Counted from the stretch's first letter, positions 1 to 28,848 are shown. The stretch: DNA of 64,000 nucleotides from a candidate division WWE3 bacterium RAAC2_WWE3_1 (GCA_000503835.1 CP006914.1:529680-593679), one strand, 5' to 3'. Numbers and translations are program-made. Notes: generated by a model not told the origin, from the sequence alone.

Positions 1-131
1 TTCAGGTCCGCTCCCTGGGTATAAGTAGCCGATTGTATCTCGTCCAATAAAAAGGACATTTCGGTTGCCCGGGTCACTGTCTGTAAAGAGCTCAATATTC
101 GGCCTTGAGTTTCGGAGGTTAAATGATTCAT
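1..131 (-). CDS. N-terminal part of a gene that runs off the window edge; translationally coupled to the b-like gene upstream of it. Possibly ATP synthase delta-like (speculative).
   Basis: Reverse complement of 1-131 reads ATGAATCAT... (MNHLTSETQGRILSSLQTVTRATEMSF...). Its ATG overlaps the TGA stop of the 128-883 gene in an ATGA arrangement. The ORF stays open to position 1. Confidence 0.3.
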   Translation of the reverse strand, partial: MNHLTSETQGRILSSLQTVTRATEMSFLLDEIQSATYTQGADL

Positions 132-883
132 ATTTTTTCATTTTTAGCTGAAAATCCTTGCCTCATTAATTCTTCTTTAAGGGTATCCAGAATAAACTTT
201 TCGTGCGACGACTGGTCTATTACCCTGCCTAGCACTTTATCCGAAACCTTTGCTATTATGTCAAATATCCTGGCGTTAATGTCCTCGGTTTTCTGAATCT
301 TGTAAGCATTGATTTCCTCTTCAATACGCGAATACTCCTCCTCCAGTTTCTTCTCGACCTCTTTTTGTTTTTCAATAGTACCTTTTCGAACGGTGTCTGT
401 TATTTCCATTACCTCCGAGGTTAACTCCCTCTTTAGCATATCCGATGTCTCACCGATAACCTGCAAATTTTCCTGACGTTCTTTTTCCAGGGCATCTTTG
501 TATGTCTTCACTAATTCCTGTCCCAATCCTTCCAGAGTTGCTGTTTGTTTGTCATAAATGGCAGTGAATTTCCTATCCAACTCATCGCGTGCTTCCCTAC
601 TTAAACTGGATGCGCTATCCAAAGTCCTGTGAGCTTTGAGCTGGCTTTCTTCCAGGATTTTCAGGGATTTCAAACGGGCTGAGTCCATTATTTTCATGGC
701 TTCTGCATATGCCTTATCTTTAATCTCGTTTTCTAAAAAGACTTCTCTCTCCTGCTTATTGCGTTGGAGTATGTACAAAAATATCAGAACCAAAATAAAA
801 ACGGTGAGAGAGGAAAAAGCGATAACAAAGTAAAAAACTCTTTCCGTAAAGAACTCGTTGGGCAGTAAGATTGCAAAATCCAT
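128..883 (-). CDS. F-type ATP synthase subunit b-like protein: N-terminal TM helix plus a long charged coiled coil
   Basis: 251 aa. One N-terminal hydrophobic helix (FYFVIAFSSLTVFILVLIFLYIL) is followed by a K/E/A-rich heptad region. The C-terminal segment ARIFDIIAKVSDKVLGRVIDQSSHEKFILDTLKEEL resembles the delta-binding end of bacterial b subunits. It lies immediately downstream of a c-subunit-like gene, matching the canonical c-b-delta order. Confidence 0.4.
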   Translation of the reverse strand: MDFAILLPNEFFTERVFYFVIAFSSLTVFILVLIFLYILQRNKQEREVFLENEIKDKAYAEAMKIMDSARLKSLKILEESQLKAHRTLDSASSLSREARDELDRKFTAIYDKQTATLEGLGQELVKTYKDALEKERQENLQVIGETSDMLKRELTSEVMEITDTVRKGTIEKQKEVEKKLEEEYSRIEEEINAYKIQKTEDINARIFDIIAKVSDKVLGRVIDQSSHEKFILDTLKEELMRQGFSAKNEKI

Positions 884-892
884 AAAGATAAT

Positions 893-1954
<1,062 letters not shown>

Positions 1955-2635
1955 CTATTACACGGGTAAGTTTGAGTGATTTTGGCGACCGGCATTCATG
2001 TTTGGGAGGCGGCCCATAAAAAACGCACATTCTTATAAAGCCGGACAGCTCTGTACACACCAGGACCTCTCTGCCCTACCCGGAAAAATATATATCAGAG
2101 AAGAATCGATTCCGTGCACTAGGACCGCAAAATAAATTTCTGGGGCGTTGTGTCGGTTCACAATAAGTTTACAGTGCTATCGTTATACTCTAAGAAGACC
2201 TGACCCTGCTGTTCGGAACACCAAGGCAAAGCCTGTAAGGGTCGGGAGCTGTAAAAATTTGAGGACTGACGAACCACTTTAGTTAAACACATAAACACGG
2301 GTATGCTCTCCGGACTATGGGGTCTATAAAAACCGGCTGTTAATAATACCTTAAAAATCTGAACCGCGTGCAAAAAATATTTCCTAACTTCCGAAAGAAA
2401 GTAATAACAAATGCTGAGCACGTCATATATTTACATCAGCAAAAAACGTTTAGTCTACAACATAAAAATACACGCCTTAAAAACAAAACATATCATATTG
2501 TCACATGTTAATAATTTAAGTCCGTGAAAAGGCTGTCAATAAAGAATAAAACAAGGTTTATGGTCCTTATGTAAATACTAACGAACATAAAACTGACAAA
2601 CCTTATCACTCGTTGATAGTAAAAGGAAATAAAGT

Positions 2636-2664
2636 ATTGACTGAGTAAAAAAAACCCTCTATTA
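2636..2664 (+). promoter_or_regulatory. Candidate promoter for the giant gene (TTGACT-17-TATTAT)
   Basis: ttgactgagtaaaaaaaaccctctattat lies about 55 nt upstream of the ATG at 2720. No obvious Shine-Dalgarno sequence is present. Confidence 0.25.
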
Positions 2665-2719
2665 TTTATAATAACTTTACTATCTGTTGTGACATAGGCA
2701 AATAGTAAACCTTCCTGCC

Positions 2720-5700
2720 ATGGAAATATCTGCCCAGAATAACAAAAAAAATTACTCAAAATCAGACTCAAACGTTTTTCGTAGTGAAGGATATGTTAAA
2801 GTATCTGAAGCCGCGAATTTATTAAGCGTTTCATCCTCTACCCTCCGTAGGTTCGAAGCTGAAGGTAAAATCACATCAAGAAGACTGGATAATAATTATA
2901 GGGTATACGATATATCAGAAGTCGCAAGATTCAAAAAAATACTTAATGAAGAAAAACAAACACGCAAAAAATCATACGTTACCGTTAACGACACACCGGT
3001 TTTTCAAAACAAAACTCCGGTCAAAGCCCACGGTTTTACCTGGCCCAAAATTAACGCCAGCTTCCCAAAAATAAATGAAACGTATAGTAACGTTTCGCAA
3101 AATTTTGAACAGCACTCGACTCTCAAAGCAGCTGCCAAATTTTTTAAGACTGCAAAAATAGCTGGTGTATCCTTCGCTGCAGTATTAATTCTAATAGGGC
3201 TGTCTGAAAATGTAAGATTTACAGATAATGTCATAGAGATACTTTCTTTCACTATGAGTAGACAGATCGAGACAGGAGAAAAAGGTTACGAAGTAATCGG
3301 ATTAACTTTAGGTTCCAAAGACAAAGTTACCAGCTATATCTACAACATTAATGTACCTGCTAACTTTAGACGAAACGTGAATATAGATGAAACTTTGCGG
3401 GTAACCGGGTTATCTTCGTTGTTAGGCGGCATAGAAACTCAAGATGCGGACGCAAACCTGGGTACGGGCACACTCACAACGGGCAGAATAGATATGACGG
3501 GCGAAGCATCCCTCAACAACCTTCTGGTCATCAATGATGTAACTGAAACTACACTGGAAGAATTCATCGATATCAATGGTGATGTGGTAGGAACCGGCTT
3601 AAACGATGTCAAAGTGGTCGGTCTCGGTGGAATCGAAGTAGGAGACCTTGACACCGATGACGGAAACATACTTATGATCGAAGGTGGAAGTTGGGCTTCT
3701 TTACCAACCAGCAGCATTACATCGCTTGGTACTATAACCACAGGCGTGTGGAACGGTACTCCTATCGCCCCGGGCTACGGCGGTACCGGACTTTCGTCAA
3801 TAACTGCCGGAAGTATTTTAATAGGGGGGTCAGGAAATACTATGTCAACTCTCGCCATCGGTTCCGCTAATCAGACGTTAATTTCAAGCGGTTCCGCCCC
3901 CGTCTGGACAAATTCCGATGCCTTTGTCTCTTCTTATGCGTGGCTGCTCACCGGTAATACAGGGACAGACAGCACTACGGATTTTATAGGGACTACGGAT
4001 AATACCGGACTTACTATCAGGACAAACGATGTCGAACGTGTGACTATAGCGGCTGACGGTAATGTGGGGATAGGAGGAACCGATCCTCAATTTTCTCTAC
4101 ATGTAGGAAATGGCAGCTCAAGCGCAGCCTGGATAGTAGGACAACAGGAAAGCGGTTACATAGAAGGCGATCTCGAGGTGGCGGGAACAATCTATGGTAC
4201 GTTTGTCGGACCCATAACAACTGTCGGGTATCAGCCTAATGCAGTGTTTTACTCTGACAGTGCCGGGACCATGACAACCGATAATACTCTGCTCTCTTTT
4301 AACGAAACCACGGCTGTGTTGTTGGTAAACGGAACTCTGAACACAAGTTTGTTTAAGATTGGTGGCACTTCAGTTACTTCAAGCGCGACTGAACTTAATA
4401 TCCTGGACGGGGCTTTAATATCAACAACAGAACTTAATCTTTTGGATGGACGCATCGGTACTCTTGTGGATTCAAGTAATGTGTCAAACTATGCTATTAC
4501 CTCAGTAGTGGCTGGATCGGGTTTAATCGGAGGAACAGGACCGGGGGCAACTACCCTTCATGTAGGGGTGGGAAACGGAATATCCATCGCCGCGGACAGC
4601 ATCGCCATAGATACAACAACAACAGGAGTAACCGCGGTATCCTCGTCCAATTCCGGACTTGAAGCATCCTCTGATGGACTTAGACTACTTGGGGGATGCG
4701 GATCTAACCAAATTCTTTCATGGGACGCAACCGGTCAGGTGTGGAAATGTGCATCAGTGTCAGGCATTGGCGGTATTACCGGAGCCGGCGCCTCAACACA
4801 GGTAGCTTTTTGGGACAGTGCGAGTTCTCTCACAGGGAATAACAGCCTTTGGTGGAACAATACAAGTACGAGACTTGGTATAGGAACCAGTGCTCCTCTA
4901 TACACACTTGATGTCAACGGAACAGCAAGGATAGGAAGTCTATCCGCAGGAAGCGGTAACTCAATAGTCCTTCAGAATGCAGGTGTACTTGAGACAAGGG
5001 ATGTTGATTCAAGGGTATGGGGAACTTCACTTGTTGACGGGACATCTTTAACCGCAAATTACCTGGCTAGAATATCTGACGCCAATACCCTAATAACCGG
5101 TATGGTCTATGACAACGGTTCATTTGTCGGAATAGGTACAACACAAGCCGGGTATCTTTTAAATATAGGGGGCTCTCTTAATACCTCGGCCCTCTTCATT
5201 GCAGGAAGTGCCGTAACATCAAGTGCCACAGAACTTAACATCCTTGATGGAGTTACCGCCACAACAAGTGAAATAAACATGCTAGCTGGAAGAACAGGAA
5301 CACTTGTTGACTCAAATAACGTGGGAAGTTATGCCGTAACTGCCATAACAGCAGGGTCAGGTCTAACAGGAGGAACAGGACCGGGAGCCACAACAATAAA
5401 TATTGGAGCCGGAAACGGATTAATAGTATCAGCTGACTCCATAGCAATAGACTCAGCAACAACCGGGTTAACTGCTGTAACATCATCTAACTCAGGTATA
5501 GAGGTAACAGCAGATGGAATAAGACTTTTAGGTGGGTGCTCACTTAACCAGGTTTTGGCTTGGGATAATACTTCACAAACATGGAAATGCTCCTCAGTCT
5601 CAGGTCTTGGAGGAGTAACAGGAACAGGAACCGATAACTACCTAGCCAGATGGGATGGAACTAGCGCTCTTCAAAATTCTTCTGTGTTTGCTGCCGATTC

Positions 5701-8700
5701 AGGTAATGTGGGAATCGGAACATCGGGTCCGGGATATAACCTGGATGTGGCGGGAAGCGCCAATGTATCAAACCTTTTTATCGCAGGAAACCTTGTATCC
5801 TCAAGTGCCACAGAACTAAATATACTTGACGGAGCACTAGTATCTACAGCCGAGATAAATCTTTTGGACGGAAGAACAGGTGTACTTTTAGACACAAGTA
5901 ATGTCTCGACCCAGCTTTCAACATGGGACCAACTGGCATCTGATGATCTGACAACCGCAACAGGGTTTTCCGGAGACGTGTCGGGTCCATATAACGATCT
6001 GCAGATACAAACAGGTGTTGTGGGTGCAAATGAACTTGCGGCAACAAGCGTATCGGCAGGAACATATGGCTCCACAAGCGGTGTCTCAACATTCACGGTA
6101 GACGCCGACGGAAGGTTAACTTCTGCCGGAAACACAACACTTAGCGGCGCCGGAATAACGGATAACACAATAGAGGAGGTTGATCTTGAGGTAACAAATG
6201 CGGGGGTAAACGGATACGTATTAACATATGACAATGCTACAGGCGGTTTCACCTGGGTATCCTCTGCCGTTATGGGTACAAACTACTGGCAGCGTATCGG
6301 TTCAAACCTTGTTCCTTTAACAGTAACAGACTATGTAACAACAAACGGAAGAATAGGTGCAGGCACAACTTCCCCCTCCTACACACTTGATGTCAACGGA
6401 ACAGCAAGGATAGGAAGTCTATCGGCAGGAAGCGGTAACTCAATAGTCCTTCAGAATGCAGGTGTACTTGAGACAAGGGATGTTGATTCAAGGGTATGGG
6501 GAACTTCACTTGTTGACGGAACGTCTTTAACTGCAAATTACCTAGCTAGAATATCTGACGCAAATACCCTAATAACCGGTATGGTCTATGACAACGGTTC
6601 ATTTGTCGGAATAGGTACTACCGGTAACTCAGGATACATACTAAATGTGGCGGGGAGTGCCAATGTATCAAACCTTTTCTTGGCAGGTACTCTTGTATCC
6701 TCAAGTGCCACAGAACTAAATATACTTGACGGAGCTACCCTTTCAACAACAGAGCTTAATCTTTTAACCGGAAGAACAGGAACACTGGTTGACTCAAATA
6801 ACGTGGGAAGTTATGCCGTAACTGCCATAACAGCAGGGTCAGGTCTAACAGGAGGAACAGGACCGGGAGCCACAACAATAAATATTGGAGCAGGTAGCGG
6901 TATCTCACTTGCCGCAGATTCAATAACCCTTGATACCGATACCACAGGTACAACCTCAGTCACATCAAATAACTCAGGTCTTGAGGTAACAGGTTCGGGT
7001 CTTAGACTTCTTGGGGGATGCTCGGATACACAGATACTTAAATGGAACTCAACCGCATCTGTCTGGTACTGTTCCTCAGATTCTACTGGTACCTCAGGTA
7101 CTGCAACCATAGCAGGATCGGGTCTTGCTACACAAATTGCCTTCTTCTCAGGTTCAACATCAATCAGTGGATCAAATAACCTATGGTGGGATAACACAGG
7201 TGGAAATCTTGGTATAGGAACATCAGGACCTGCAGCTAAACTCGAACTTGCCGGCTCCGCTGATACTGAACAATTCGTAATAAAAGCGAACGCTACACAA
7301 TCTAATACGAACCCTTTGATTCAGCTTCAATCATCGACCGGAACCGCTCTCTTAGATATCAGCACAGATAGTGTTGAAAACGTATTTATAGGCAGATTGG
7401 CAGGAAGTTCGAACACTGTGGGTGCAGGAAGCAGCGGCATGTACAACACCTTCATTGGCAGCGGCGCCGGTGATAATAATTCTGCCGGATACCAAAATAG
7501 CGTACTCGGCGCTTACGCCCTTTTCGGAAACACTTATGGAATAAACAACACCTCTATGGGCGTGTATTCACTTTTCTCAAATACTACCGGTAACGACAAC
7601 GTTTCGCTGGGTTTCAAAGCCGGGCAGTATAGCACGACCGGATCATACAACGTATTTTTAGGTACAAGCGCAGGATTTGGGGTCAACACCACACAAAGAG
7701 CTTTGTCTAGCTATAACGTAGCTATAGGTAACGAAGCCGGTTATAGCTTGTCGGCTAACTCCAGCAGTAACATATTCTTAGGCTACAGAGCAGGATATAA
7801 CGAGACGGGGTCTAATAAGCTGTATATAGATAATGGGTCAGCTCCCGGGGGGAGTGCCTTCATCTACGGAGATATGTCAAGTGACCTTTTAACCTTCAAC
7901 GCTAATGTGGGAATTGGAAAGACGTCCCCCACAGCATGGCTTGATATATCAGCTGCAACAACCTCTAAACCTTCGATAAGAGTAGCCTCAGGCACAGCTC
8001 CTTCCTCACCTGTTACAGGGGACATATATAATAATGGGACTTCCCTTTACTACTACAACGGAACTGCATGGCAAGATCTCGGAGCTACAGGTACATCAGG
8101 CACTGCAGCCATAGCAGGATCAGGTCTTGCAACTCAGGTTGCCTTCTTCTCAGGTTCCACATCAATTTCCGGGTCAAATAACCTATGGTGGGATTCCGGT
8201 AACTCAAGACTGGGAATCGGAACATCCGGTCCTGCCTACCCACTATCAGTGCTATCAACGGCACCTGATGTGGCCGACGGTCGCGTAGCTGACGTAGACG
8301 GAACGTTGACATCCTCAACAAACGATCAGCAGGGGTTTAAAACCTCCGTTACGGTCACTCCGGGCGCAAGCACCTCAAAAATCTACTCTGGCATGCAACT
8401 CTCGCTCTCGGGCAACAGTAATACACGTTTGACGAACGCCATTTTTAGAGGTGTAGAAGGTTATATCAGCTACAGCGGATCTTCGGGCATACTTGGCACA
8501 GGTATTGGGGGAAGATTCAGGGTAAATAATTCGTCAACGGGCACAATCACTAACGCCTATGATTTATACCTGGCAACCCCGACGAATACCGGAACGATCA
8601 CAAATACTTATGGTCTTTACATAGATTCTATGACTGCGGGCACCCAGCCGAACAAGGCTTTTGGAATATATCAGGCCGGTTCCGGTGACAGAAATTACTT

Positions 8701-11700
8701 CGCCGGTAATGTAGGTCTAGGAACAACTAACCCGGCAAGCATACTTCAGGTTGCAGGAAACATTCTACCCTCTGCAGACGATACCTACGATATTGGTTCC
8801 AGTGCATTAAGGTGGCGGGATGTGTATATAGGGCCTGCATCCTTACACATCGGTACCAATCAGAGCGAGGCAACCATAAAGTATCTGGTAGGCCAAAGCT
8901 CACTTGGCTTTGATCTTGATGCTAACGGTGTTTACGAGTTTGAAATGGGTGCAGACGGAAAATTCGGTATCGGCACAACCAACCCGAACTTCATGTTGGA
9001 CATTGCCGGAAGTGCAAGCGTAAACACCTTATTCCTTGGAGGTTCTGCGATAACGGCGACTGCCGCTGAACTTAACCGCCTATCAGGAGGATCCGGAAAT
9101 GTTGTCGATACAGGTAACGTGGGAAGTTATGCCGTAACTGCCATAACAGCAGGGTCAGGTCTAACAGGAGGAACAGGACCGGGAGCCACAACAATAAATA
9201 TTGGAGCAGGGAGTGGTATCTCACTTGCCGCAGATTCAATAACCCTTGATACCGATACCACAGGTACAACCTCAGTCACATCAAATAACTCAGGTCTTGA
9301 GGTAACAGGTTCGGGTCTTAGACTTCTTGGGGGATGCTCGGATACACAGATACTTAAATGGAACTCAACCGCATCTGTCTGGTACTGTTCCTCAGATTCT
9401 ACTGGTACCTCAGGTACTGCAACCATAGCAGGATCCGGTCTCGCAACTCAGGTTGCCTTCTTCTCAGGTTCAACATCAATTTCCGGGTCAAATAACCTAT
9501 GGTGGAACTCCACAGATTCAAGACTAGGGATTGGAACGTCCGCTCCTTTAACCTCACTCGATGTATCAGGAACAACCTGGCTAAGAGGCCTCTCGGCAAA
9601 TTCGGGACTATTCGTAAATGCATCAGGATCTATAGGAATCGGAACAACCAACCCGCAATATAATCTGCACGTAGTAGGAAACCTCGGGCTTACAGGAGAT
9701 TTTTATCTGCTTGGAGCACCTTCCTCACCTTCCACAACCGAAGGCACTATGTACTATGATACTGACGATGACCGGCTCAAAGTCTATGCTAACGGAAAAT
9801 GGCAATCAGACAGAACAACAGCAACCGTGATAGTTGCCGCATCAGATAGTAAAAATAAGGAAAAAGCCGATATTGTGGCTGACGGAACCAACGACGAAAC
9901 GGATATTGAGAATGCCGTTACCAACTACCTTCCGGCCACAGGAGGTAACGTTGTACTTCTTGACGGTACATACAATATAGGGGCGGACGGCATAGATATC
10001 ACCAAATCAAACGTTACCTTAACAGGTGCCGGTAATGCTACTGTCGTTAAAAGAGTTGCTGACTCGACAGCTGTCGACGGAACAATTACTTTAGGTGATG
10101 GGGGTACAACAGCTGTTACCAATGTCAAAATTACAGAACTCCAGGTCGACGGTCAAAAAAGTGCGTATTCCAGTCCTAATAACGTTGCGATATTTTTCAA
10201 CCAGCGGGTAACCCAGTCTCAAATTGAAGGCACCTACATTCACGATATTTATAGTTACGGCATTTACCTGAAAGGTACTACACAATCGGTCAGTGATAAT
10301 ACCATTCACAATAACACCATTATAAACAGCAGTAACCCAATCTATGTCGATGCCGGATCAACCAGCACCCGCGCTCACAACATTTCAATTACCAATAATA
10401 ATATTTCATCGGGCGTTGCAGGAATTTACATAAATTACGCTAAGTATTTTAAAGTTTCAGATAACAAATTTTCTAACTATCAGTATATTTTATCGGTGGA
10501 TAACTCCGAATATGGCGTTATTAGCGGAAACACCACTGACGGCAGCACTATTACAGGGGTTAATACAGCCATGGTTATATCCTTAGGTGCGAGCAATTAC
10601 AACACAATCGTTTCCAACTATATTTACGGCGGTTCGGGTATGGGTGGTTCGGCGGCAATATATGTCGACAATACAAGTACCGGGAACTATATAGCCGGTA
10701 ATACCTTGGGCAACAACAAGATAACCGATTCAGGTATCGGCACAATCATTCAGCAGGACGACCGATTCCTCGTAAACGGATATTTAAAAGCTACTTCCCT
10801 ATATCTTTCAGGTACGCAGGTAACCTCAAGTGCCACAGAACTAAATATACTTGACGGAGCTACCCTTTCCACAACAGAGCTTAATCTTTTAACCGGAAGA
10901 ACAGGAACACTTGTTGACTCAAATAACGTGGGAAGTTATGCCGTAACTGCCATAACAGCAGGGTCAGGTCTAACAGGAGGAACAGGACCGGGAGCCACAA
11001 CAATAAATATTGGAGCAGGGAGTGGTATCTCACTTGCCGCAGATTCAATAACTCTTGATACCGATACCACAGGTACAACCTCAGTCACATCAAATAACTC
11101 AGGTCTTGAGGTTGTGGCTGATGGCCTTCGCCTAATCGGAGGATGTACAGATACTCAAATTCTTAAATGGAATGCATCAACCTCCATGTGGTACTGCGCT
11201 GCTGATTCTACAGGAACTGCAGGTTCAGCCACAATCGCAGGCTCTGGTGTTGTAAACCAAGTCTCATTCTTCTCAGGCTCCACATCAATATCCGGTTCAA
11301 ATAATCTATGGTGGGACAATTCAAATACAAGACTAGGGATTGGAACATCGGGTCCTTTAACCGCTCTTGATGTATCCGGAACCACATGGCTTAGAGGTCT
11401 TTCAGCTAACTCGGGACTATTTGTAAACACCTCGGGATACGTCGGAATCGGAACAACCAACCCCACTGCCCCGCTAAGTGTTGGAACAGGTAGCGCCTTT
11501 GCGGTCAGTTCAACAGGAGCTGTAACATCAGGGAGCTGGAATGGCGCCGCAATAAGCGTTCCCTACGGAGGTACCGGATTGACATCAATTGCCGCGGGCT
11601 CCGTTCTTGCCGCCAATTCGGTTGACACGTTAAGTGTTATAACCTCAACATCCGGTCTTAAAGTACTACAAAATAGCGCGGGTACAACGTCGTGGGCGAC

Positions 11701-14700
11701 AACAACCGGTACCGGAAATGTGGTCTTTTCAGACTCTCCAGTACTAACAACTCAGGCCATGGTTCCTCTAATAGTCGGCGGATCATCGCCCACATCCGTC
11801 CTTACCCTTAAATCCACATCAGGAACCGGAACGACGGACGCCATCGTATTCCAGGTGGGAACAAACGGCGGTACAGAGGCCATGAGAATATTAAATAGCG
11901 GAAATATAGGGATTGGCACCACCTCCAACGCTTATAAACTATTCGTGGACGGATCGTTAAATGCTACTTCCCTGTATCTTTCGGGTTCTCAGGTAACATC
12001 AAGTGCCACAGAACTAAATATACTTGACGGAGCTACCCTTTCCACAACAGAGCTTAATCTTTTAACCGGAAGAAGCGGAACACTGCTTGATTCCGGTAAC
12101 GTGGGAACATACGCCACAACAGCAGTTACCGCAGGTTCAGGTCTATCGGGGGGTGGTACAACCGGCGCCCTAACCATTAATATCGGAGGCGGAAACGGAA
12201 TAACAATAAATGCTGATGATATAACGATAGATGCGACAACCGCTGGGACGACAACCGTCAAATCCAATAATTCCGGTCTTGAGGTGGTGTCAGACGGTCT
12301 CAGACTTCTTGGGGGGTGTGCGAACGGAGAAGTTTTAAAGTGGAATTCAAGTACTTCGGTTTGGTACTGTGCAGTTGACACAACAGGTTCCGGTACAGCT
12401 ACAATCGCAGGATCCGGAATAGCCGGACAATTAACCTTCTTCACCGGCTCCACGGCGGTATCCGGTTCAAATAACCTGTGGTGGGATAACACAGGCGGAA
12501 ATCTTGGAATAGGGACATCAGGACCTGTAGCTAAACTCGAACTTGCCGGCTCCGCTGATACTGAACAATTCGTAATAAAAGCGAACGCCACACAATCTAA
12601 TACGCAGCCACTCATTCAACTGCAATCCCCAACGGGCACTCCTCTGCTCTCCATCACTTCAGATAATGAAACGAACGCCTTCTTTGGATACAGAGCAGGT
12701 TCCGCTAATACATACGGATCTGCAACATCCGGTGGGGGCAACACATTCATAGGCTATCTTTCGGGATCTTCAAATAATGCAGGTTACCAAAATACATCTG
12801 TAGGTGGAGAGGCCTTGTCTAGAAACACGACAGGAGTCTATAATAGCGGACTTGGTTATCAATCACTTTACTCAAACACAACGGCAAACTATAACACCGC
12901 GGTTGGGTTTCAAGCACTTTACTCAAACACACTCGGGAGTGCTAACATCGGGGTTGGCTTTGGCGCAGGAGTATACAACCAAACGGGTACCGGAAATTTG
13001 TTTTTGGGACATAAGGCCGGGTACGGGGGAGCAGCAAGGACAGGCTCAGACTTCAACGCAGCGGTGGGTTACGAAGCGGGATACAGTCTATCCGCAAACT
13101 CCGATAGCAACATATTTTTAGGTTACAGAGCAGGATACAATGAAACAGGTTCTAATAACTTGTATATAGACAACACCTCATCTCCTGCAGATACAGCCTT
13201 TATTTATGGTGACATGGGCCTCGATCGATTAACCTTTAACGCTAATGTTGGAATAGGAAAAACATCCCCCACAGCGTGGCTTGATGTCGCAGCAGCAACA
13301 ACAGCTAAACCTTCCATAAGGGTAGCAACGGGTGCTGAACCTTCCTCCCCTGTAACCGGAGACATATATAACAATGGAACGTCCCTTTACTACTACAATG
13401 GAACAGCCTGGAAGGATCTTACGGCTACAGGAGCAGGTGGTGGTCTTGCTGGCTCAGGAATCGCCGGACAACTCACATTTTTCACCGGATCCACAGCAGT
13501 ATCCGGTTCAAACAATCTATGGTGGGATTCCGGTAACTCAAGACTGGGAATCGGAACATCCGCTCCTTTAACCTCAATCGATGTATCCGGAACCACGTGG
13601 CTTAGAGGTCTTTCGGCAAATTCGGGACTATTTGTAAACCAGTCAGGATATACCGGCATAGGTACAACAAGCCCAATCTCGAAACTCCAGGTGGAAGGAC
13701 CCACATGGCTTAGAGGCGGCACTGGTGTCGCCGGAGCAAAAGGTGTCTATATAGATGCCAACTCGAATCTCGGTATCGGAACAACAAATCCCGGGTATTT
13801 ACTCACCTTAAATACCACAACCGATCAGCACGCAATAGCTTTCCTCGAAGGAACAACAAACAGGGCGTTCTTCGGACTGGCCGCATCTGCAGGTCAGTTT
13901 GCTGCAGGTTCTCGTGATAACGACCTTATTTGGAGATCTGAAAGTGGCAGTAACCAGCTTTGGACCACAGACGGAGGTACTACCGCAATGGTGACCCTTA
14001 ACTCAGGGGGTAACCTGGGAATAGGAACAACAGCTCCTTTGGCATGGTTCGATGTTAAGGGCGCTACAACATCCGAGGCATCTATAAGAGTGAGAAGCGG
14101 GACCCAGCCTTCGGCGCCTGCAACGGGCGATATTTATAACGACGGCGACCAGCTCTTCTTCTACAACGGAACTGCATGGCAGGATCTTGGGGCGACGACC
14201 GCGGGGGGCGGCGGTATCGCAGGATCCGGAATAGCCGGACAATTAACCTTCTTCACCGGCTCCACGGCGGTATCCGGCTCAAACAACCTGTTCTGGGATA
14301 CTTCAAACTCAAGGCTGGGAATAGGAACATCCGCTCCTGCGTCACAACTCGCACTGCTTAGCACTGACACAACAAACGGTCAATTTAGAATAGGCTACGA
14401 TGCCTCTAACTATACTAAGTTCACAACCGACTCCGTCGGTAATCTGACCCTTAATAACAACGGCACCAACGTGGTCAAGTTCGGCGCTACCAACACCGAA
14501 TTCTATACACCTACAACCTTCTCGGCCGCAGGCGATGTGTCTATGGCCTACGACCTCATATTTACAAATGCGACAAGCTCTGAGCTCAGATCATACGGGC
14601 CTCTCAGCATAACGGCGGGAGAAACATACGGCAGCAGCAACCTCACGCTTAAGACCTATAACTCAGGTGACATTGTGGCTGACCTAACAGGAACAGGCAG

Positions 14701-16144
14701 GCTCAGACTAAACGGGGCGGATACCACACTGCTCTTCGACACAAAGACTGCCACCGATACCGACTACTGGATGGGTGTAATAGACGACGCCGGCGGCGAC
14801 GATGACGACATGTTCGCCATAGGAAAAGGTCTTTCCAACTCGTCAAATATTTACCTCTCGATAGCTTCCTCAGGATGGGTCGGCTTAGGATTGCCAGCTA
14901 CAAGTGCTCCTACAGCAACACTTGACGTAAACGGCGGAGCAAGATTTAGAGGAATCGGTTCCAGCGCTTATGTCGGAGCTGTGAATTATGCAACGGGCGG
15001 TGTATTAACTACAGCAACATCAGACGCCAGGCTCAAGACAAACGTTACAACAATAGACAATGCCCTCGACAAAGTAACAAGACTAAGAGGCGTCACATTT
15101 AACTGGCTCGACCCCAACGCACCTAAACGTATGACAGGTATGATCGCCCAGGAAGTTGCTGATGTTATGCCCGAGCTTGTGTTCCAAAACCCGAACGATG
15201 GTTACTATGGATTGTTCTACGGCGAAACAACAGGCTTATTAATTGAAGCCACAAAAGAGCTAAATACAAAACTACTTGCCTTAGAATCAGGCCTAACAAC
15301 CTACACAACAACCGCTGACGGAACCCTTAGTACAATAACTACAAGCACCGACAGCAACCTGACCAAACTTAACACCCTGGAAACTGACGTGACCGCCCTG
15401 CAAACAGAGGTCCTGTCCATAAAAGAGCTGTTAGCTCAGGCCGCTCCTCAAAGCTCACAAAGTAGCGCTACTGTAGCCACTACACCCGAAGGAATGCTAG
15501 CCGAGATGTACAAAGTCTTTGAAGACCTCAAAGCGTTCGTCGCGGCTCTCGGTCTATCAAACAATGGAAACGCCCTCGCGGTATCAACCGACCTTAACGT
15601 ACTTGGCGACACCACCTTATCTAACCTAACCGTAACCGGTGATATAAGTGCAGGATTAATGAAACTCGACACACTCAACAATGTGTTCGAGGTGGCCGGT
15701 CCTTCCTGCTACAACGAGCTTACCGGTACAACCAATACAACTCTCTGCACCGATCAAACAATGTACCTCCAGAAATCACTGGCAGGAAATGTTGACGTCC
15801 TCAACGGAGCCTTGGTTGTGGAACCCAACGGAAACGTTACCGTCAAAGGCACTTTACTGGCTCAGAAAGTGGAAACCACAGATATATCAACCGAAAACGT
15901 GACTATAAAAGCTGCTTCAAAGTCGGTCGGAAGCGGGACAATAACCTCAGGACAAACTCAAATTGTGATAGATAACACACTGATAAAGACAGGGTCGAAG
16001 GTATTCGTGACCGCCACATCCAGTACTAACGGGCAGGCTTTGATTGTTAAAGAAAAACTTGATGGGGTGTCGTTCACGGTAGCCGTCGATCGACCGGTCC
16101 CGGGAGATGTAGCCTTCGATTGGTGGATTGTAAATGTTGAATGA
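2720..16144 (+). CDS. Giant (4474 aa) membrane-anchored surface protein: N-terminal MerR/excisionase-type HTH, one TM helix, tandem phage-tail-fibre-like repeat modules, YadA-like repeats, a parallel beta-helix block and an internal peptidase-S74 intramolecular chaperone (self-cleaving) domain
   Basis: A 13.4-kb ORF with no stop codon. Approximate amino-acid positions of the named elements:
- aa 25-72, HTH: VKVSEAANLLSVSSSTLRRFEAEGKITSRRLDNNYRVYDISEV.
- aa 146-162, hydrophobic helix: IAGVSFAAVLILIGL.
- Seven or more copies of a ~150-aa module: TSSATELNILDGA..ELNLL.GRTGTLVDS.NV..YA.T...AGSGL.GGTGPGATT...G.G.GI...AD.I..D....G.T.V.S.NSGLE......GLRLLGGC.
- IGIGTT.P...LDV.G motifs typical of tail fibres.
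- nt 7380-7870 and 12640-13200: YadA-head-like N.A.G..A repeats.
- nt 10100-10760: beta-helix repeats (NNTI.NSS...I, ISITNNNISSG).
- nt 15020-15260: SDARLKTNVTTIDNALDKVTRLRGVTFNWLDPNAPKRMTGMIAQEVADVMPELV, matching the S74/CIMCD consensus of tail spikes and endosialidases. Confidence 0.85.
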   Translation: MEISAQNNKKNYSKSDSNVFRSEGYVKVSEAANLLSVSSSTLRRFEAEGKITSRRLDNNYRVYDISEVARFKKILNEEKQTRKKSYVTVNDTPVFQNKTPVKAHGFTWPKINASFPKINETYSNVSQNFEQHSTLKAAAKFFKTAKIAGVSFAAVLILIGLSENVRFTDNVIEILSFTMSRQIETGEKGYEVIGLTLGSKDKVTSYIYNINVPANFRRNVNIDETLRVTGLSSLLGGIETQDADANLGTGTLTTGRIDMTGEASLNNLLVINDVTETTLEEFIDINGDVVGTGLNDVKVVGLGGIEVGDLDTDDGNILMIEGGSWASLPTSSITSLGTITTGVWNGTPIAPGYGGTGLSSITAGSILIGGSGNTMSTLAIGSANQTLISSGSAPVWTNSDAFVSSYAWLLTGNTGTDSTTDFIGTTDNTGLTIRTNDVERVTIAADGNVGIGGTDPQFSLHVGNGSSSAAWIVGQQESGYIEGDLEVAGTIYGTFVGPITTVGYQPNAVFYSDSAGTMTTDNTLLSFNETTAVLLVNGTLNTSLFKIGGTSVTSSATELNILDGALISTTELNLLDGRIGTLVDSSNVSNYAITSVVAGSGLIGGTGPGATTLHVGVGNGISIAADSIAIDTTTTGVTAVSSSNSGLEASSDGLRLLGGCGSNQILSWDATGQVWKCASVSGIGGITGAGASTQVAFWDSASSLTGNNSLWWNNTSTRLGIGTSAPLYTLDVNGTARIGSLSAGSGNSIVLQNAGVLETRDVDSRVWGTSLVDGTSLTANYLARISDANTLITGMVYDNGSFVGIGTTQAGYLLNIGGSLNTSALFIAGSAVTSSATELNILDGVTATTSEINMLAGRTGTLVDSNNVGSYAVTAITAGSGLTGGTGPGATTINIGAGNGLIVSADSIAIDSATTGLTAVTSSNSGIEVTADGIRLLGGCSLNQVLAWDNTSQTWKCSSVSGLGGVTGTGTDNYLARWDGTSALQNSSVFAADSGNVGIGTSGPGYNLDVAGSANVSNLFIAGNLVSSSATELNILDGALVSTAEINLLDGRTGVLLDTSNVSTQLSTWDQLASDDLTTATGFSGDVSGPYNDLQIQTGVVGANELAATSVSAGTYGSTSGVSTFTVDADGRLTSAGNTTLSGAGITDNTIEEVDLEVTNAGVNGYVLTYDNATGGFTWVSSAVMGTNYWQRIGSNLVPLTVTDYVTTNGRIGAGTTSPSYTLDVNGTARIGSLSAGSGNSIVLQNAGVLETRDVDSRVWGTSLVDGTSLTANYLARISDANTLITGMVYDNGSFVGIGTTGNSGYILNVAGSANVSNLFLAGTLVSSSATELNILDGATLSTTELNLLTGRTGTLVDSNNVGSYAVTAITAGSGLTGGTGPGATTINIGAGSGISLAADSITLDTDTTGTTSVTSNNSGLEVTGSGLRLLGGCSDTQILKWNSTASVWYCSSDSTGTSGTATIAGSGLATQIAFFSGSTSISGSNNLWWDNTGGNLGIGTSGPAAKLELAGSADTEQFVIKANATQSNTNPLIQLQSSTGTALLDISTDSVENVFIGRLAGSSNTVGAGSSGMYNTFIGSGAGDNNSAGYQNSVLGAYALFGNTYGINNTSMGVYSLFSNTTGNDNVSLGFKAGQYSTTGSYNVFLGTSAGFGVNTTQRALSSYNVAIGNEAGYSLSANSSSNIFLGYRAGYNETGSNKLYIDNGSAPGGSAFIYGDMSSDLLTFNANVGIGKTSPTAWLDISAATTSKPSIRVASGTAPSSPVTGDIYNNGTSLYYYNGTAWQDLGATGTSGTAAIAGSGLATQVAFFSGSTSISGSNNLWWDSGNSRLGIGTSGPAYPLSVLSTAPDVADGRVADVDGTLTSSTNDQQGFKTSVTVTPGASTSKIYSGMQLSLSGNSNTRLTNAIFRGVEGYISYSGSSGILGTGIGGRFRVNNSSTGTITNAYDLYLATPTNTGTITNTYGLYIDSMTAGTQPNKAFGIYQAGSGDRNYFAGNVGLGTTNPASILQVAGNILPSADDTYDIGSSALRWRDVYIGPASLHIGTNQSEATIKYLVGQSSLGFDLDANGVYEFEMGADGKFGIGTTNPNFMLDIAGSASVNTLFLGGSAITATAAELNRLSGGSGNVVDTGNVGSYAVTAITAGSGLTGGTGPGATTINIGAGSGISLAADSITLDTDTTGTTSVTSNNSGLEVTGSGLRLLGGCSDTQILKWNSTASVWYCSSDSTGTSGTATIAGSGLATQVAFFSGSTSISGSNNLWWNSTDSRLGIGTSAPLTSLDVSGTTWLRGLSANSGLFVNASGSIGIGTTNPQYNLHVVGNLGLTGDFYLLGAPSSPSTTEGTMYYDTDDDRLKVYANGKWQSDRTTATVIVAASDSKNKEKADIVADGTNDETDIENAVTNYLPATGGNVVLLDGTYNIGADGIDITKSNVTLTGAGNATVVKRVADSTAVDGTITLGDGGTTAVTNVKITELQVDGQKSAYSSPNNVAIFFNQRVTQSQIEGTYIHDIYSYGIYLKGTTQSVSDNTIHNNTIINSSNPIYVDAGSTSTRAHNISITNNNISSGVAGIYINYAKYFKVSDNKFSNYQYILSVDNSEYGVISGNTTDGSTITGVNTAMVISLGASNYNTIVSNYIYGGSGMGGSAAIYVDNTSTGNYIAGNTLGNNKITDSGIGTIIQQDDRFLVNGYLKATSLYLSGTQVTSSATELNILDGATLSTTELNLLTGRTGTLVDSNNVGSYAVTAITAGSGLTGGTGPGATTINIGAGSGISLAADSITLDTDTTGTTSVTSNNSGLEVVADGLRLIGGCTDTQILKWNASTSMWYCAADSTGTAGSATIAGSGVVNQVSFFSGSTSISGSNNLWWDNSNTRLGIGTSGPLTALDVSGTTWLRGLSANSGLFVNTSGYVGIGTTNPTAPLSVGTGSAFAVSSTGAVTSGSWNGAAISVPYGGTGLTSIAAGSVLAANSVDTLSVITSTSGLKVLQNSAGTTSWATTTGTGNVVFSDSPVLTTQAMVPLIVGGSSPTSVLTLKSTSGTGTTDAIVFQVGTNGGTEAMRILNSGNIGIGTTSNAYKLFVDGSLNATSLYLSGSQVTSSATELNILDGATLSTTELNLLTGRSGTLLDSGNVGTYATTAVTAGSGLSGGGTTGALTINIGGGNGITINADDITIDATTAGTTTVKSNNSGLEVVSDGLRLLGGCANGEVLKWNSSTSVWYCAVDTTGSGTATIAGSGIAGQLTFFTGSTAVSGSNNLWWDNTGGNLGIGTSGPVAKLELAGSADTEQFVIKANATQSNTQPLIQLQSPTGTPLLSITSDNETNAFFGYRAGSANTYGSATSGGGNTFIGYLSGSSNNAGYQNTSVGGEALSRNTTGVYNSGLGYQSLYSNTTANYNTAVGFQALYSNTLGSANIGVGFGAGVYNQTGTGNLFLGHKAGYGGAARTGSDFNAAVGYEAGYSLSANSDSNIFLGYRAGYNETGSNNLYIDNTSSPADTAFIYGDMGLDRLTFNANVGIGKTSPTAWLDVAAATTAKPSIRVATGAEPSSPVTGDIYNNGTSLYYYNGTAWKDLTATGAGGGLAGSGIAGQLTFFTGSTAVSGSNNLWWDSGNSRLGIGTSAPLTSIDVSGTTWLRGLSANSGLFVNQSGYTGIGTTSPISKLQVEGPTWLRGGTGVAGAKGVYIDANSNLGIGTTNPGYLLTLNTTTDQHAIAFLEGTTNRAFFGLAASAGQFAAGSRDNDLIWRSESGSNQLWTTDGGTTAMVTLNSGGNLGIGTTAPLAWFDVKGATTSEASIRVRSGTQPSAPATGDIYNDGDQLFFYNGTAWQDLGATTAGGGGIAGSGIAGQLTFFTGSTAVSGSNNLFWDTSNSRLGIGTSAPASQLALLSTDTTNGQFRIGYDASNYTKFTTDSVGNLTLNNNGTNVVKFGATNTEFYTPTTFSAAGDVSMAYDLIFTNATSSELRSYGPLSITAGETYGSSNLTLKTYNSGDIVADLTGTGRLRLNGADTTLLFDTKTATDTDYWMGVIDDAGGDDDDMFAIGKGLSNSSNIYLSIASSGWVGLGLPATSAPTATLDVNGGARFRGIGSSAYVGAVNYATGGVLTTATSDARLKTNVTTIDNALDKVTRLRGVTFNWLDPNAPKRMTGMIAQEVADVMPELVFQNPNDGYYGLFYGETTGLLIEATKELNTKLLALESGLTTYTTTADGTLSTITTSTDSNLTKLNTLETDVTALQTEVLSIKELLAQAAPQSSQSSATVATTPEGMLAEMYKVFEDLKAFVAALGLSNNGNALAVSTDLNVLGDTTLSNLTVTGDISAGLMKLDTLNNVFEVAGPSCYNELTGTTNTTLCTDQTMYLQKSLAGNVDVLNGALVVEPNGNVTVKGTLLAQKVETTDISTENVTIKAASKSVGSGTITSGQTQIVIDNTLIKTGSKVFVTATSSTNGQALIVKEKLDGVSFTVAVDRPVPGDVAFDWWIVNVE
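6660..8230. repeat. Copy 1 of a ~1.6-kb segmental duplication inside the giant gene: repeat unit, AKLELAGSADTEQFVIKANATQSNT block, YadA-like repeats and a GDIYNNGTSLYYYNGTAW block
   Basis: The domain order and many sequence stretches recur at 11950-13570. For example, 7200-7340 is about 93% identical to 12490-12630. The protein segment NIFLGYRAGYNETGSN.LYIDN...FIYGDM..D.LTFNANVGIGKTSPTAWLD appears at both sites. Confidence 0.8.
11950..13570. repeat. Copy 2 of the ~1.6-kb segmental duplication inside the giant gene
   Basis: See copy 1 at 6660-8230. The modules are collinear and carry patches of near-identity at the DNA level. Confidence 0.8.
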
Positions 16145-16229: not shown

Positions 16230-19200
16230 ATGAAAGAGGGATTAAATATTAAAGAAAAAATGAAGAGGGTTCGCAGGAAAATAGTCGGTTTTGGCAAATT
16301 CTCCACACCCTATAGAAAACATGATGTTACTTCTATTTTTGAGGAACGCGAGAGGTCTAAAGACACAGGTAGTAGTATAAAAGCATTTTCAAGCAAAAAA
16401 CTTCAACTCCTATACATAAAAATTATCGCCTTCTTTACGGCTCGAAAACAGAATTGGAGGAATTTCTATACTCAAGAACTGCCTTTTTCAAGAATTTTGC
16501 GTTTTCTAAAGTCGCGCTACCCCACTTACAAAAAGTATCTTGTACCCGTCTCAGTTGGAATGCTTATAGTATTGCTTCCGGTTATCTGGCTGTCTATAAA
16601 AAATCCCGACAAAGTTCGGGCAGATTGGTTTGACGACAACTGGCACTATAGAAAAAAAATTACCATCACAAATAACGGGACGGCTGACGCTGATAAAAAA
16701 ATCCTGTTCGAAACCGACACCTCTGCTCTAATCTCCGGGTCTAAAATGCAAAACACCTGCGCTGACGCCAGGTTTACCGATGTCAATGGTCAGGTATTGA
16801 GATATTACATTGATGCGGCCACCGGAGCGTGCAACACGGTATCCACTGACTTTTATGTCCTTCTACCCACTATAAACGCCGGATCCACGGTTATTTACTT
16901 CTATTACGCAAATACCTATGTAGAGGCGGTTGCTGAAACAAGTCAGTTTTCGCAGGCAACGTTTAGCCCGGCCGGAAGCTCTACAGGCAACGAGTCTGTC
17001 GGCCCCGGACCGGCTGCATACTGGAAGTTTGATGAGGCTTACGATCAGAAGGAGAATACAAAGATTGAACAGGAACTGGAGATTATGACCGTCGGCGAGT
17101 ATTCAACAAGCAGTTATACCGCTTCAATCCCAATTGATATTACCTATAGTGCCGCCCAAAATCTCACAGACTACCAGATTCCTGTTACCTTTTCATATCA
17201 ATCGGGAATGAATACGGATTTTTCGGATATTAGATTTTACAACTCTGCCGGTACAAAACTTAATTATTGGATAGAGTCAAAAACGGACAGTACTACCGCA
17301 AGTGTATGGGTTAAGGTACCGCTAATCTCCGGCAGTACAACGACTACAATCTATCTAAGATACGGAAATTCCGGCTTTACATCCGAAAGCTCACTGGCCA
17401 ACACATTCACGAGCAACTCCGTTCAATTGTTGACAAGTAGATGCCCCAGTTCCAGCACGGCATGCTATTTTTCCGACTCGCATACAGAGTTCGACACTGT
17501 AGCCAGCAGTGTTCAGAACCTCACAAGCGGTTTTGCCGTCGACGGGAGCGGCAGTGTTACTGCGGTTAACAACTCATCAAATCCTTATGGAAGTTCAGAT
17601 AACTATTTTTCCCGATACCGTTTCCTTTTTGTCGCGGATACATCAGGAACTCATGGTTTTTTGGTCAACAGCGATGACGCGAGCGAGCTAAACCTCAGAG
17701 ATGCCATGGATACCGACACTACCCATACTGTACCGGCCTATTGGTATGGAGGCCACGGTAACGCGGGAACGTGCGCAACCAGCGGCACGACCGGTACCAG
17801 ATCCATAAACTCCGGTGAATCCGTTTGGCTGGATTACAGACAGACTGAGGTCGGAAGTGGACAACTGGCACAACTGTGCATCTCTGAGCCGGCCGGAAGC
17901 TATGCAGTGGTAAATACGACAAATTTTCCGGGACAGCTTTACGCTAGGAGTGTGATCACAACCGGATCGGAGCCATCGGTATCCGTTGGTGCTCCACAAC
18001 AAGGTGGATATACGTTCATGCCCACGAATAACTCCCTTGGAATTGTCGGTTATAACCCCTCTCTTTACAGCTCGGTAAGTTCAGTAAATCTGGAAATCGT
18101 TGCCAGTACGGATAACGGAACCACTTGGACTAAATATCGGACAACGGAATCGGGTAATAATCTTTCCTCCTCCACCTACACGGTCAGAGTAAAAGCAGGG
18201 GTCGGTTCGAACACACCACAAGCCGCGTTATATGACACTACAAGTGGCACATCTTTCCTACCGCTGAATTTTGGCACTACGTCGGACACCGAGGTTTCGA
18301 TCAAGAACGCACGGCTTATTATAAGACAGGAAAGTGGCGTCGGAATAACACAAACTGAGACGAAGACGGAGATGGGGAGTTATGAGGCCGGCACAGCAGC
18401 TACATATACTCAACAAACTGACAAAAAAATATACAACTACGATTCAACTAAGTATAACCCCGCCCCTACCAATTTTTTCGAAACTACAGCTAAGGTTACA
18501 AATGACAGTGTTGGGGTAGAACAGCAAATCCCTATAACAAATACGCCTCCTCTGACTACACGTACTACTTCCTACACCCCAACAGACAGTTCACTTGGTG
18601 TCGGCTATTGGGATGCAGACAAATACCCCGGAGGTACCGTTTATCTCGAGGTTGACCACTATAACTATGATTACTCGGATCCGTATATAGCCATATATAC
18701 TGTGTCAGGAACTTATGTGACCGAGTTTCAGGTCAGCCCCGCATCTCAAGGATATATACGATATAGAAGTCCGGCTTTAACTCTAACCGACGATACTGCG
18801 TACACAGTGCGATGGAAGGCTTCAAACGCAGCCCATCCCCAGACACTCTACGCCGCCCGTTTCATAGTTGTTCAGACCGATACCACAAAGATTACCGGAA
18901 CAGAGACACAGGTTGAAATCGGGGCCAATACAACCTCAACAGCAACCTCCTATACAAACTTGACTGACAAAAAAATATGGCGATACGACTCATCCAAATA
19001 CTCTCCCGCTCCAACTACCTATTTTGAAGCGGTGCTATCAAACGACACCGCTGGTCAGACCTCTTACGTAGCTCTTTATACGGATGGGGCAGCTTGTTCC
19101 TCCCAGGTAACGGGATCCGAGATTAGCGTTACGGGGACTACCTGGTCATGGGTAAGAAGTAACAGTATTTCCCTTTCAAGCGGAACCGACTATACGGTTT

Positions 19201-27294: not shown

Positions 27295-27331
27295 TTATTT
27301 ATTAACCCTTGAAAGGGGGTGCGGTATTAAT

Positions 27332-27751: not shown

Positions 27752-27755
27752 TATT

Positions 27756-27821
27756 CATTTGAGTACAAAAGTATAATCATTTGAGTACAAAAGTATAATC
27801 ATTTGAGTACAAAAGTAGTAT
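27756..27821. repeat. 3 x 22-bp perfect or near-perfect tandem repeat (tcatttgagtacaaaagtataa) directly 3' of rplL
   Basis: The 22-bp unit occurs three times (third unit ends gtagta instead of gtataa). Each copy ends in the motif aaagta, as does the rplL 3' end. Confidence 0.85.
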
Positions 27822-27845
27822 TCGATTTTATATTCGCGCGAAAAA

Positions 27846-27874
27846 GAAACGCCTCTACGGGGGCGTTTTTTGTT
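27846..27874. terminator. Bidirectional rho-independent terminator between rplL (+) and the GalT-like gene (-)
   Basis: aaagAAACGCCtctacgggGGCGTTTtttgtt. The stem is flanked by an A-run and a T-run, so it can terminate transcripts from both strands. Confidence 0.7.
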
Positions 27875-28841: not shown

Positions 28842-28848
28842 GGACAGT

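Follow-up and report, generated by a model that had tools for sequence, protein, structure and literature searches.

The uncultured, ultra-small candidate division WWE3 bacterium RAAC2_WWE3_1 carries, within a 64,000-nucleotide stretch of DNA (GCA_000503835.1 CP006914.1:529680-593679; referred to here as the window, and the source of all coordinates below), a giant gene that is termed gene 1 (2720-16144, plus strand). Gene 1 is likely to encode a giant surface fibre from the candidate phyla radiation (CPR), the in-phase modules of which overwrite one another by homologous recombination. A preliminary description of this DNA had suggested intragenic recombination or gene conversion, and this suggestion is upheld: the modules form a pair-specific mosaic with sharp breakpoints, synonymous divergence is near zero within the shared tracts and near saturation outside them, and paralogous modules are closer to one another in nucleotides than to an ortholog with the identical peptide. 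These features argue for concerted evolution by homologous recombination among the modules of gene 1.

Direct-repeat detection and self-BLAST of gene 1 revealed ten repeat families and 32 off-diagonal alignments, so that the off-diagonal identity expected from a self-comparison of 2720-16144 is present. Tandem Repeats Finder detected nothing in gene 1; its repeats are dispersed or have a period above 500. The module motif SSATELN occurs at nucleotides 4379, 5219, 5801, 6701, 9056, 10826 and 11999, the fifth copy (9056) reading ATAAELN. The seven modules announced in the preliminary description were thus found in number and position, including the partial third one, but their size was not: with its linker, a full module spans about 565-600 bp, or about 190-200 aa, rather than about 450 bp and 150 aa. 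Each full module runs from an (L/V)GIGT(T/S)xP joint through a GGC...W.C cysteine pair and an AGSG..Q.AFF.GS..SGSNNLWW linker to the next joint. The motif G(D/T)(I/M)Y...YYNG.AW, previously taken as the general punctuation of the modules, was found in only three strict copies (8018, 13358 and 14126) and one loose copy (9743). The real punctuation is the (L/V)GIGT(T/S).P joint, which occurs 21 times in gene 1, together with the NNLWW linker, which occurs eight times (motif at 4847, 7181, 8183, 9497, 11306, 12476, 13517 and 14288). The repeat units, all on the plus strand, are as follows.

4298-4888, plus: module M1, the most diverged copy, with 53-59% aa identity to the others.
4901-5139, plus: block E1 (TLDVNGTARIGSLSAG...GSFVGIGTT), identical to E2 at 233 of 239 positions.
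5141-5722, plus: module M2; its 5' core at 5288-5409 is an exact 122-bp copy of 10895-11016 in M6, and its 3' half is of a different old subtype with an NYLARWDG tail.
5723-6367, plus: module M3, partial; the first 45 aa or so are module-like and the remainder is another tail-fibre-style sequence.
6380-6618, plus: block E2, a copy of E1.
6620-7222, plus: module M4, the hub of the homogenised tracts; 6699-6987 equals M6 with 5 mismatches.
7235-8071, plus: C-block 1, 278 aa (AKLELAGSADTEQF..., 17-residue repeats, GDIYNNGTSLYYYNGTAW).
8085-8233, plus: NNLWW linker after C-block 1.
8978-9538, plus: module M5, with the short N-terminal subtype seen in orthologs; over its 3' 320 bp it hardly differs from M4.
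9557-9654, 11366-11463 and 13577-13674, plus: block D (LDVSGTTWLRGLSANSGLFVN...), in three copies.
10745-11347, plus: module M6; 10924-11112 equals 9115-9303 of M5 with 1 mismatch, and a 76-bp exact run is shared with M7.
11921-12517, plus: module M7, an old subtype whose closer relatives lie in other WWE3 genomes.
12530-13411, plus: C-block 2, 293 aa, a paralog of C-block 1 (70% aa identity).
14018-14338, plus: a third, partial C-block end with linker, 71% identical in nucleotides to 13250-13567.

Several of these units share tracts that are nearly identical at the DNA level. The longest exact repeat in gene 1 is 221 bp; in 50 codon shuffles of the gene the corresponding length averaged 14 bp and never exceeded 16 bp, and other 13.4-kb chunks of the window have longest exact repeats of 21-41 bp. 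The 221-bp run lies in the pair M4 and M5, where 6799-7119 and 9115-9435 differ by 2 mismatches. Around it, 6794-7164 and 9110-9480 are identical at 360 of 371 positions (97.0%), in agreement with the identity of at least 95% given earlier for 6780-7150 against 9110-9480, although the true offset is 2316. Positions 4911-5150 match 6390-6629 at 226 of 240 sites; the near-identity claimed for this pair was thus found, at 94%, with an offset of 1479 in place of 1480. Over the E blocks themselves, 4901-5139 and 6380-6618 differ by 6 mismatches. An identical core of about 80 bp had been reported at three places. It was found as 76 bp shared exactly by 10826-10901 and 11999-12074, and M4 (6701-6776) matches both with 1 mismatch. 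Every copy offset is a multiple of three, so that any crossover between copies would remain in frame.

The mosaic was read from a codon alignment of the modules, in which column windows were compared pair by pair. M4 and M5 are 100% identical over alignment columns 80-180. M4 and M6 share 93-100% over columns 40-140 and about 70% afterwards, and M4 and M7 share 92% at columns 40-60, 54-74% in between and 93-100% beyond column 240. M2 and M4 are 100% identical at columns 80-100 and 52% afterwards. When the order of the 428 polymorphic sites was permuted 2000 times, no permutation yielded shared runs as long as the longest observed, of 23-133 sites (p<=0.0005, eight pairs), and Maynard-Smith max-chi2 breakpoints were significant (p=0.003). 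Synonymous divergence, calculated as Nei-Gojobori pS inside and outside the tracts, follows the same boundaries: 0.024 in the M4-M5 tract versus 0.43 downstream, 0.07 in the M4-M6 tract versus 0.65 outside, and 0 in the M2-M4 core versus 0.62 outside. Mismatches between near-identical copies are not adenine-biased, fall mostly at third codon positions and are clustered at the tract ends.

The comparison with other genomes separates this pattern from conservation of the protein. The 31-aa core VGSYAVTAITAGSGLTGGTGPGATTINIGAG is encoded by M2, M4, M5 and M6 with 91-93 of 93 nucleotides identical. The ortholog L013 (MEWJ01000044.1, WWE3 RIFOXYD1_FULL_43_17), from a related WWE3 species, encodes the identical 31-aa peptide but shares only 75-76 of the 93 nucleotides, that is, it has 17-18 synonymous differences; the L019 copy, with one residue different, shares 70-71 of 93. 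Since the peptide is identical in L013 while its nucleotides have drifted, the nucleotide identity within the window is not due to protein constraint, and the core comparison indicates that synonymous sites drift freely between species and are homogenised within the genome. The flanks of the tracts point to old subtypes that differ from one another. Modules of the uncultured Saccharibacteria contig L017 have the same 3' tail as M2 (GTGTDNYLARWDG...), and M2 with this Saccharibacteria-like tail carries the M6 core. The short N-terminus of M5 is the form found in L013 and L019, yet M5 carries the 3' part of M4. M7 has 77% aa identity to L013 copy a and is closer to it than to any copy in the window.

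The explanation proposed here is that the modules would be old subtypes, present in other Patescibacteria too, and that in-phase copies recombine within the genome, stretches of about 60-320 bp of one module being repeatedly overwritten by those of another. Non-reciprocal gene conversion or unequal crossing-over, or the two together, would be the mechanism, presumably of the RecA type; both are probably at work. The outcome would be hybrid modules with a common homogenised core, and the same recombination would add, delete and shuffle modules with the reading frame kept. The predicted product would consist, in order, of a cytoplasmic MerR-type helix-turn-helix (HTH), one transmembrane (TM) helix, about 3900 aa of tail-fibre-style modules set at GIGT(T/S)xP joints, a beta-helix and a self-cleaving S74 chaperone, and the fibre would probably be trimeric.

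Public assemblies allow part of this region to be compared with independent contigs. The flanking genes have identical protein sequences in 93-99 public assembly blocks, which include the metagenome-assembled genomes (MAGs) GCA_000998145.1, GCA_001000215.1, GCA_000995235.1 and GCA_003516475.1 as well as JGI, ENA and Logan metagenomes. In contrast, exact look-ups of gene 1, of the neighbouring giant gene 2, of a 334-aa upstream ORF (open reading frame) and of the predicted partial product of 7100-16144 gave no identical entry, homology searches with the beta-helix, the gene 1 C-terminus and the gene 2 N-terminus gave nothing above 85% identity, and the best match of a metagenome scan with the unique beta-helix was only a 33% relative. 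Unlike the flanking genes, this population's giant proteins are apparently missing from the searched index. Independent contigs reaching into gene 1 from its 5' side match the window at 99.96% identity or more. Four of them end at 4930, 5139, 5312 and 5446, either inside block E1 or the M2 core or at the edge of one of these, which substantiates the earlier warning that these repeats are a hazard for short-read assembly. L009, from another sample, reproduces the M2 hybrid, comprising the 122-bp tract and its unique flanks, at 99.98% up to 5446. By coordinate arithmetic, three long contigs on the 3' side, Ga0209212_1000502, LCJF01000004.1 and ERZ28564264 scaffold_260, should reach about 6100-7100. 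In L013, a run of N (a scaffold gap) lies at L013:10555-10716, just before the S74 domain, and the public ortholog is therefore also incompletely resolved.

Several points weigh against the reading of gene 1 as a recombining surface fibre. The contig L007 (JGI 3300025322 Ga0209641_10000325; L007:1-1320, reverse strand) has one mismatch to the window over 1-5139 and then continues with M4-like sequence (97% to 6619-7024), about 670 nucleotides that are absent from the 64-kb window, another module core and the contig end. The module order of 5447-16144 and the sequences of M4-M7 come from the window assembly alone, and consensus polishing with multi-mapped reads could inflate the identity between copies. 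Non-reciprocal conversion and unequal crossing-over are indistinguishable here. An AlphaFold2 monomer model of module M4 with six paralogs was poor (predicted local distance difference test, pLDDT, 50.6), and surface exposure, trimerisation and a role in adhesion or attachment are inferred.

The L007 contig and the contig ends bear directly on the possibility that short reads from similar modules or co-occurring strains were merged or mis-joined in assembly or curation, creating the mosaic, the module order or the identity of the tracts. Such an artefact is considered unlikely, with a chance that is far from negligible. It is favoured by the four contigs of the same population that stop inside the repeats, by the departure of L007 from the window after 5139, by the exact repeats of 107-221 bp, which equal or exceed usual k-mers and read lengths, and by some short-repeat regions that were not fully resolved in curated Rifle CPR genomes (PMC3812714). 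However, a mis-join reorders real segments and does not make identical tracts within diverged flanks; the M2 hybrid is reproduced in another sample by L009; L007 carries the identical core twice, in different contexts; the frame is intact across 13.4 kb; and in two relatives, P0042 and L013, the modules resemble one another internally in the same way. The L007 insert of about 670 nucleotides itself encodes a GIGT/NNLWW-style segment (...RLYNISGDLYWNGVNL...), in the same protein style, and L007 would be an allele that co-exists with the window version and differs in module content, or else a chimera, for example with a paralog elsewhere in the genome. A history of staggered duplications only, in which segmental duplications of varied age and boundary arose with no transfer between existing copies, is quite improbable. 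The 1.6-kb unit described below and the E/M2 unit (offset 1479) are plain duplications, and module number varies between relatives, as such a history would have it. Its difficulty is that tracts of 60-320 bp sit in modules whose two flanks are of different old subtypes, that the copies lie 1.2-5.6 kb apart with unrelated sequence between them, where a duplication would carry the flanks along, and that three or four copies have a common core but differing tract ends.

Two further explanations of the near-identity carry much less weight. That the copies are kept identical by selection, whether for the protein, for codon usage or for a signal in RNA or DNA, accords with the strong conservation of the core peptide across species, but the ortholog encodes that same peptide with its 17-18 synonymous differences per 93 nucleotides, and the high identity is specific to pairs and not common to all copies; this explanation is very improbable. 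CPR genomes often contain diversity-generating retroelements (DGRs), which act on surface proteins, and on this general ground the near-identical pairs might be template and variable repeats. No reverse transcriptase was found by Pfam in gene 1, gene 2 or 29 other ORFs of the window, and the mismatches between copies, as described above, lack adenine specificity; a DGR is excluded on these two grounds, its probability being next to nil. Recombination among in-phase modules stands as the likely account of the tracts, and the larger repeat of gene 1 has to be set apart from it.

This larger repeat was correctly recognised in the preliminary description, which placed it at 6660-8230 and 11950-13570: 6620-8233 and 11918-13567 are collinear over 538 of 550 aa, with 68% aa identity and one 17-aa repeat-unit indel, and the DNA identity of the duplicated unit of about 1.6 kb is about 75%. 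Its inclusion in a recent recombining system was not supported. C-block 1 is 83% identical to a copy in L013 versus 70% to its own paralog, C-block 2, and the duplication is therefore older than the species split. A patch of 60 bp (7234-7293, equal to 12529-12588) is exact and appears homogenised within the old duplication; apart from such short patches, the sequence comparison places the 1.6-kb duplication outside the recent homogenisation.

The remaining parts of gene 1, recognised by profile searches or read from the sequence, are the following.

2720-16144, plus: giant gene 1, one uninterrupted ORF of 4474 aa, encoding a putative membrane-anchored modular tail-fibre-like surface protein.
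2798-2941, plus: N-terminal MerR-type HTH, aa 27-74 (Pfam MerR at 38.7 bits and MerR_1 at 31.3 bits, each exceeding its curated cut-off).
3158-3202, plus: the sole hydrophobic segment IAGVSFAAVLILIGL, aa 147-161, preceded by a Lys-rich stretch (read from the sequence).
9707-10789, plus: a unique parallel beta-helix region, NosD/Beta_helix-like (Pfam NosD 4e-10, about aa 2545-2681).
15020-15181, plus: Peptidase_S74 intramolecular chaperone domain, aa 4101-4154 (PF13884, 61.4-66 bits versus a cut-off of 22).

The hydrophobic segment suggests an N-in membrane anchor, a predicted topology that would leave about 4300 residues outside. The S74 domain opens with SDARLK (aa 4101-4106, Ser4101...Lys4106), and S32, D33 and K37 of the S74 alignment are invariant among relatives; the Ser and the Lys five residues on in SDARLK are what we take to be the catalytic dyad at the cleavage site of the S74 family. 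About 320 aa remain beyond the S74 core. The nearest relatives of the beta-helix region contain PF13229/PF05048 domains and show no more than 45% identity, in partial alignments. The C-terminal region of gene 1 matches PHROG long-tail-fibre families down to 5e-27, and the C-block has weak PHROG matches to tail spike and virion structural families (about 1e-11). The term tail-fibre-like, used in the preliminary description, thus suits the C-terminus, with its Peptidase_S74 domain and PHROG tail-fibre matches at the 1e-27 level, and is weak for some of the blocks. The module family marked by SSATELN matched nothing in Pfam or PHROGs, and a PDB profile search with the module gave a single marginal match, to 8uus, the fibre of the Afp tailocin (E=0.079). 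Sequence searches of the PDB yielded no meaningful match for either the C-block or the C-terminus. The AlphaFold model of the C-terminal 405 aa was mediocre (pLDDT 56.7), and Foldseek of this model against the PDB gave weak matches to tailspike C-terminal domains (E>=4e-3). The best reading of the gene 1 product, judged from sequence, is a membrane-anchored trimeric fibre that would rely for its folding on an intramolecular chaperone of phage type; that it adheres to a host or substrate may reasonably be inferred.

Several other identities were considered for this protein and rejected. Repeats within the larger duplicated unit had earlier been described as YadA-like, but no Pfam YadA match appears even at E<=1 and there is no YadA anchor; a trimeric autotransporter adhesin is rejected because YadA_head, YadA_stalk and YadA_anchor are all missing at E<=1 on the C-block and the C-terminus. 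A sortase (LPXTG) substrate is rejected since the only LP.TG motif is internal (LPATG, aa 2404) and the C-terminus reads ...DVAFDWWIVNVE. Two sortase genes lie in the window, at 38081-38779 and 60931-61572, and neither giant protein has a C-terminal LPXTG signal. A prophage or phage structural gene does not fit the neighbours, which are genes for ATP synthase, L10/L7-L12, L1/L11/NusG/SecE, glycogen enzymes and competence proteins, and a 37-nucleotide pattern from gene 1 found no match in viral contigs. A canonical MerR regulator would be a soluble protein of about 130-270 aa, with a winged HTH at the N-terminus and a coiled-coil dimerisation and effector domain at the C-terminus, whereas here the HTH is followed by a TM helix and a fibre of 4300 aa. 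Release of the HTH by S74 cleavage in the manner of MYRF is also rejected, since about 3900 residues lie between the TM helix and the S74 domain at the distal extracellular end, and cleavage there cannot set the N-terminal domain free.

The module family extends well beyond this genome. A profile of six full modules, searched against 1.84 billion cluster representatives, matched 7088 representative proteins at E<=1e-3, 1265 at 1e-10 and 135 at 1e-30; many members run to thousands of residues and have as many as 38 matched stretches. The best match, P0042 (7185 aa), has an HTH, a TM helix, a conserved N-terminal region, modules, an S74-like region and a conserved C-terminal tail in the same order as gene 1. 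Its 17 modules have a median identity of 76% within the protein versus 42% to the modules of the window. L013 differs in its module make-up: four full C-blocks and two more AKLMLAGSAD starts were found, as against the two full C-blocks of the window. From these sequence comparisons, lineage-specific expansion and homogenisation of modules is a general property of the family. The closest species-representative loci with a homolog of the gene 1 C-terminus, at 72-85% identity, were found in candidate division WWE3 MAGs. Of the 149 best module-family representatives, 16 have this same HTH at the N-terminus, in each case within aa 3-87, and giants of 2.2-7.2 thousand aa, for example P0042, P0064 and P0119, are among them. 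The cytoplasmic end of a giant surface fibre would thus bear a DNA-binding domain. The literature searched holds no description of an HTH-TM-fibre-S74 family in Patescibacteria.

Gene 1 is followed by giant gene 2 (16230-26504, 3424 aa), which contains Laminin_G_3 and DUF2341 domains. Gene 2 has an exact tandem duplication within 19235-20600 with a period of 654 bp (19235-19534 equal to 19889-20188 at 100%, about 712 bp matching overall). L001 has two copies of it as in the window, and L002-L006 apparently have one fewer, which is either copy-number polymorphism or assembly collapse. In L002, gene 2 lacks 51 bp (17 aa), and a frameshift splits it into several called genes. Two ORFs run antisense to gene 1 in the repeat region (5671-6252, minus strand, 193 aa; 11989-12615, minus strand, 208 aa); these are most likely spurious and arise from the low stop-codon content of the repeat sequence. 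Elsewhere in the window, paralog pairs of glycogen type were found (GT5 starch-synthase-like, 28849-30249 and 33254-34813; GH57, 30301-31800 and 31802-33139), and a 41-bp exact repeat lies somewhere within 27000-40425. A competence and DNA-uptake cluster occupies 49024-53636 on the minus strand and comprises ComEC (49024-50043), a ComEA-like HHH/SLBB protein (50065-50703), a Mg-chelatase/ComM-like ATPase (51236-52756) and DprA (52746-53636).

A bolder extension of the recombining-fibre reading, which is doubtful, would treat the core of about 190 bp in M2, M4, M5 and M6, together with the GIGT and NNLWW joints, as portable homology. A host-dependent CPR cell might with its help frequently shuffle, swap and import fibre modules, including from related strains by natural transformation; import by this route is proposed because ComEC, ComEA and DprA lie in the same window. 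The result would be cassette-style variation in host range or antigenicity within one expressed gene; many alleles would co-exist, L007 among them, and the HTH would couple the fibre to DNA. Natural transformation could likewise supply donor DNA for allelic exchange at the giant genes.

Apart from this extension, the evolution of gene 1 by recombination among its modules is of the expected kind in the expected kind of gene. Homologous recombination among in-frame repeats is a textbook mechanism. An attached life on other cells is assumed for CPR bacteria, and their giant surface proteins are obvious candidates for the contact. A widespread module family that evolves in concert within one gene, with module content differing between close relatives, is what would be expected of a determinant of contact or host range. 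In addition, gene 1 and gene 2 are loci where short-read MAGs systematically break or collapse, and gene counts, protein lengths and strain comparisons at such loci are untrustworthy without long reads.

How does gene 1 compare with known systems? Phage tail fibres and tailspikes with an S74 chaperone, such as the K1F endosialidase and the T5 L-shaped fibre pb1, resemble gene 1 in the S74 domain with its Ser...Lys motif and in the PHROG matches; a fibrous composition rich in G, T, S and N, a parallel beta-helix and weak tailspike fold matches of the last beta-sandwich are further likenesses. Unlike these fibres, gene 1 is chromosomal and not in a prophage, is 4-10 times longer than typical fibres, and begins with an HTH and a TM anchor where those fibres have a virion-attachment domain. 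A second group is formed by repeat-rich modular surface fibres of bacteria that evolve through intragenic recombination: trimeric autotransporter adhesins (YadA, BadA), giant extracellular proteins such as Giant1-5 of Apilactobacillus kunkeei (PMC12863079), and the giant genes of Omnitrophota (bioRxiv 10.1101/2023.11.21.568195), for which fragmentation at repeats is well described. They share with gene 1 the long arrays of similar modules, a module number that varies between relatives and the breaking of short-read assemblies at the repeats, whereas gene 1 lacks YadA head and anchor domains and an outer-membrane beta-barrel, has an N-terminal TM anchor and belongs to another module family. Neisseria pilE/pilS, Borrelia vlsE and Mycoplasma genitalium MgPa use silent donor cassettes outside one expression site, with frequent programmed switching. 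As in these systems, short tracts are transferred in gene 1 between diverged homologous cassettes to give a mosaic surface protein; in contrast, all copies in gene 1 are expressed parts of one ORF, and no silent cassettes are known. Closest to home are the large predicted surface proteins of CPR genomes reported by Kantor et al. 2013 (PMC3812714), which reach 5,900 aa and include lectin and pectin-lyase domains among others; the searched text of that paper holds no description of the module family, the HTH-TM-fibre-S74 architecture or conversion tracts. These proteins share with gene 1 the type of organism, the habitat, the giant class and the pectin-lyase-like beta-helix content.

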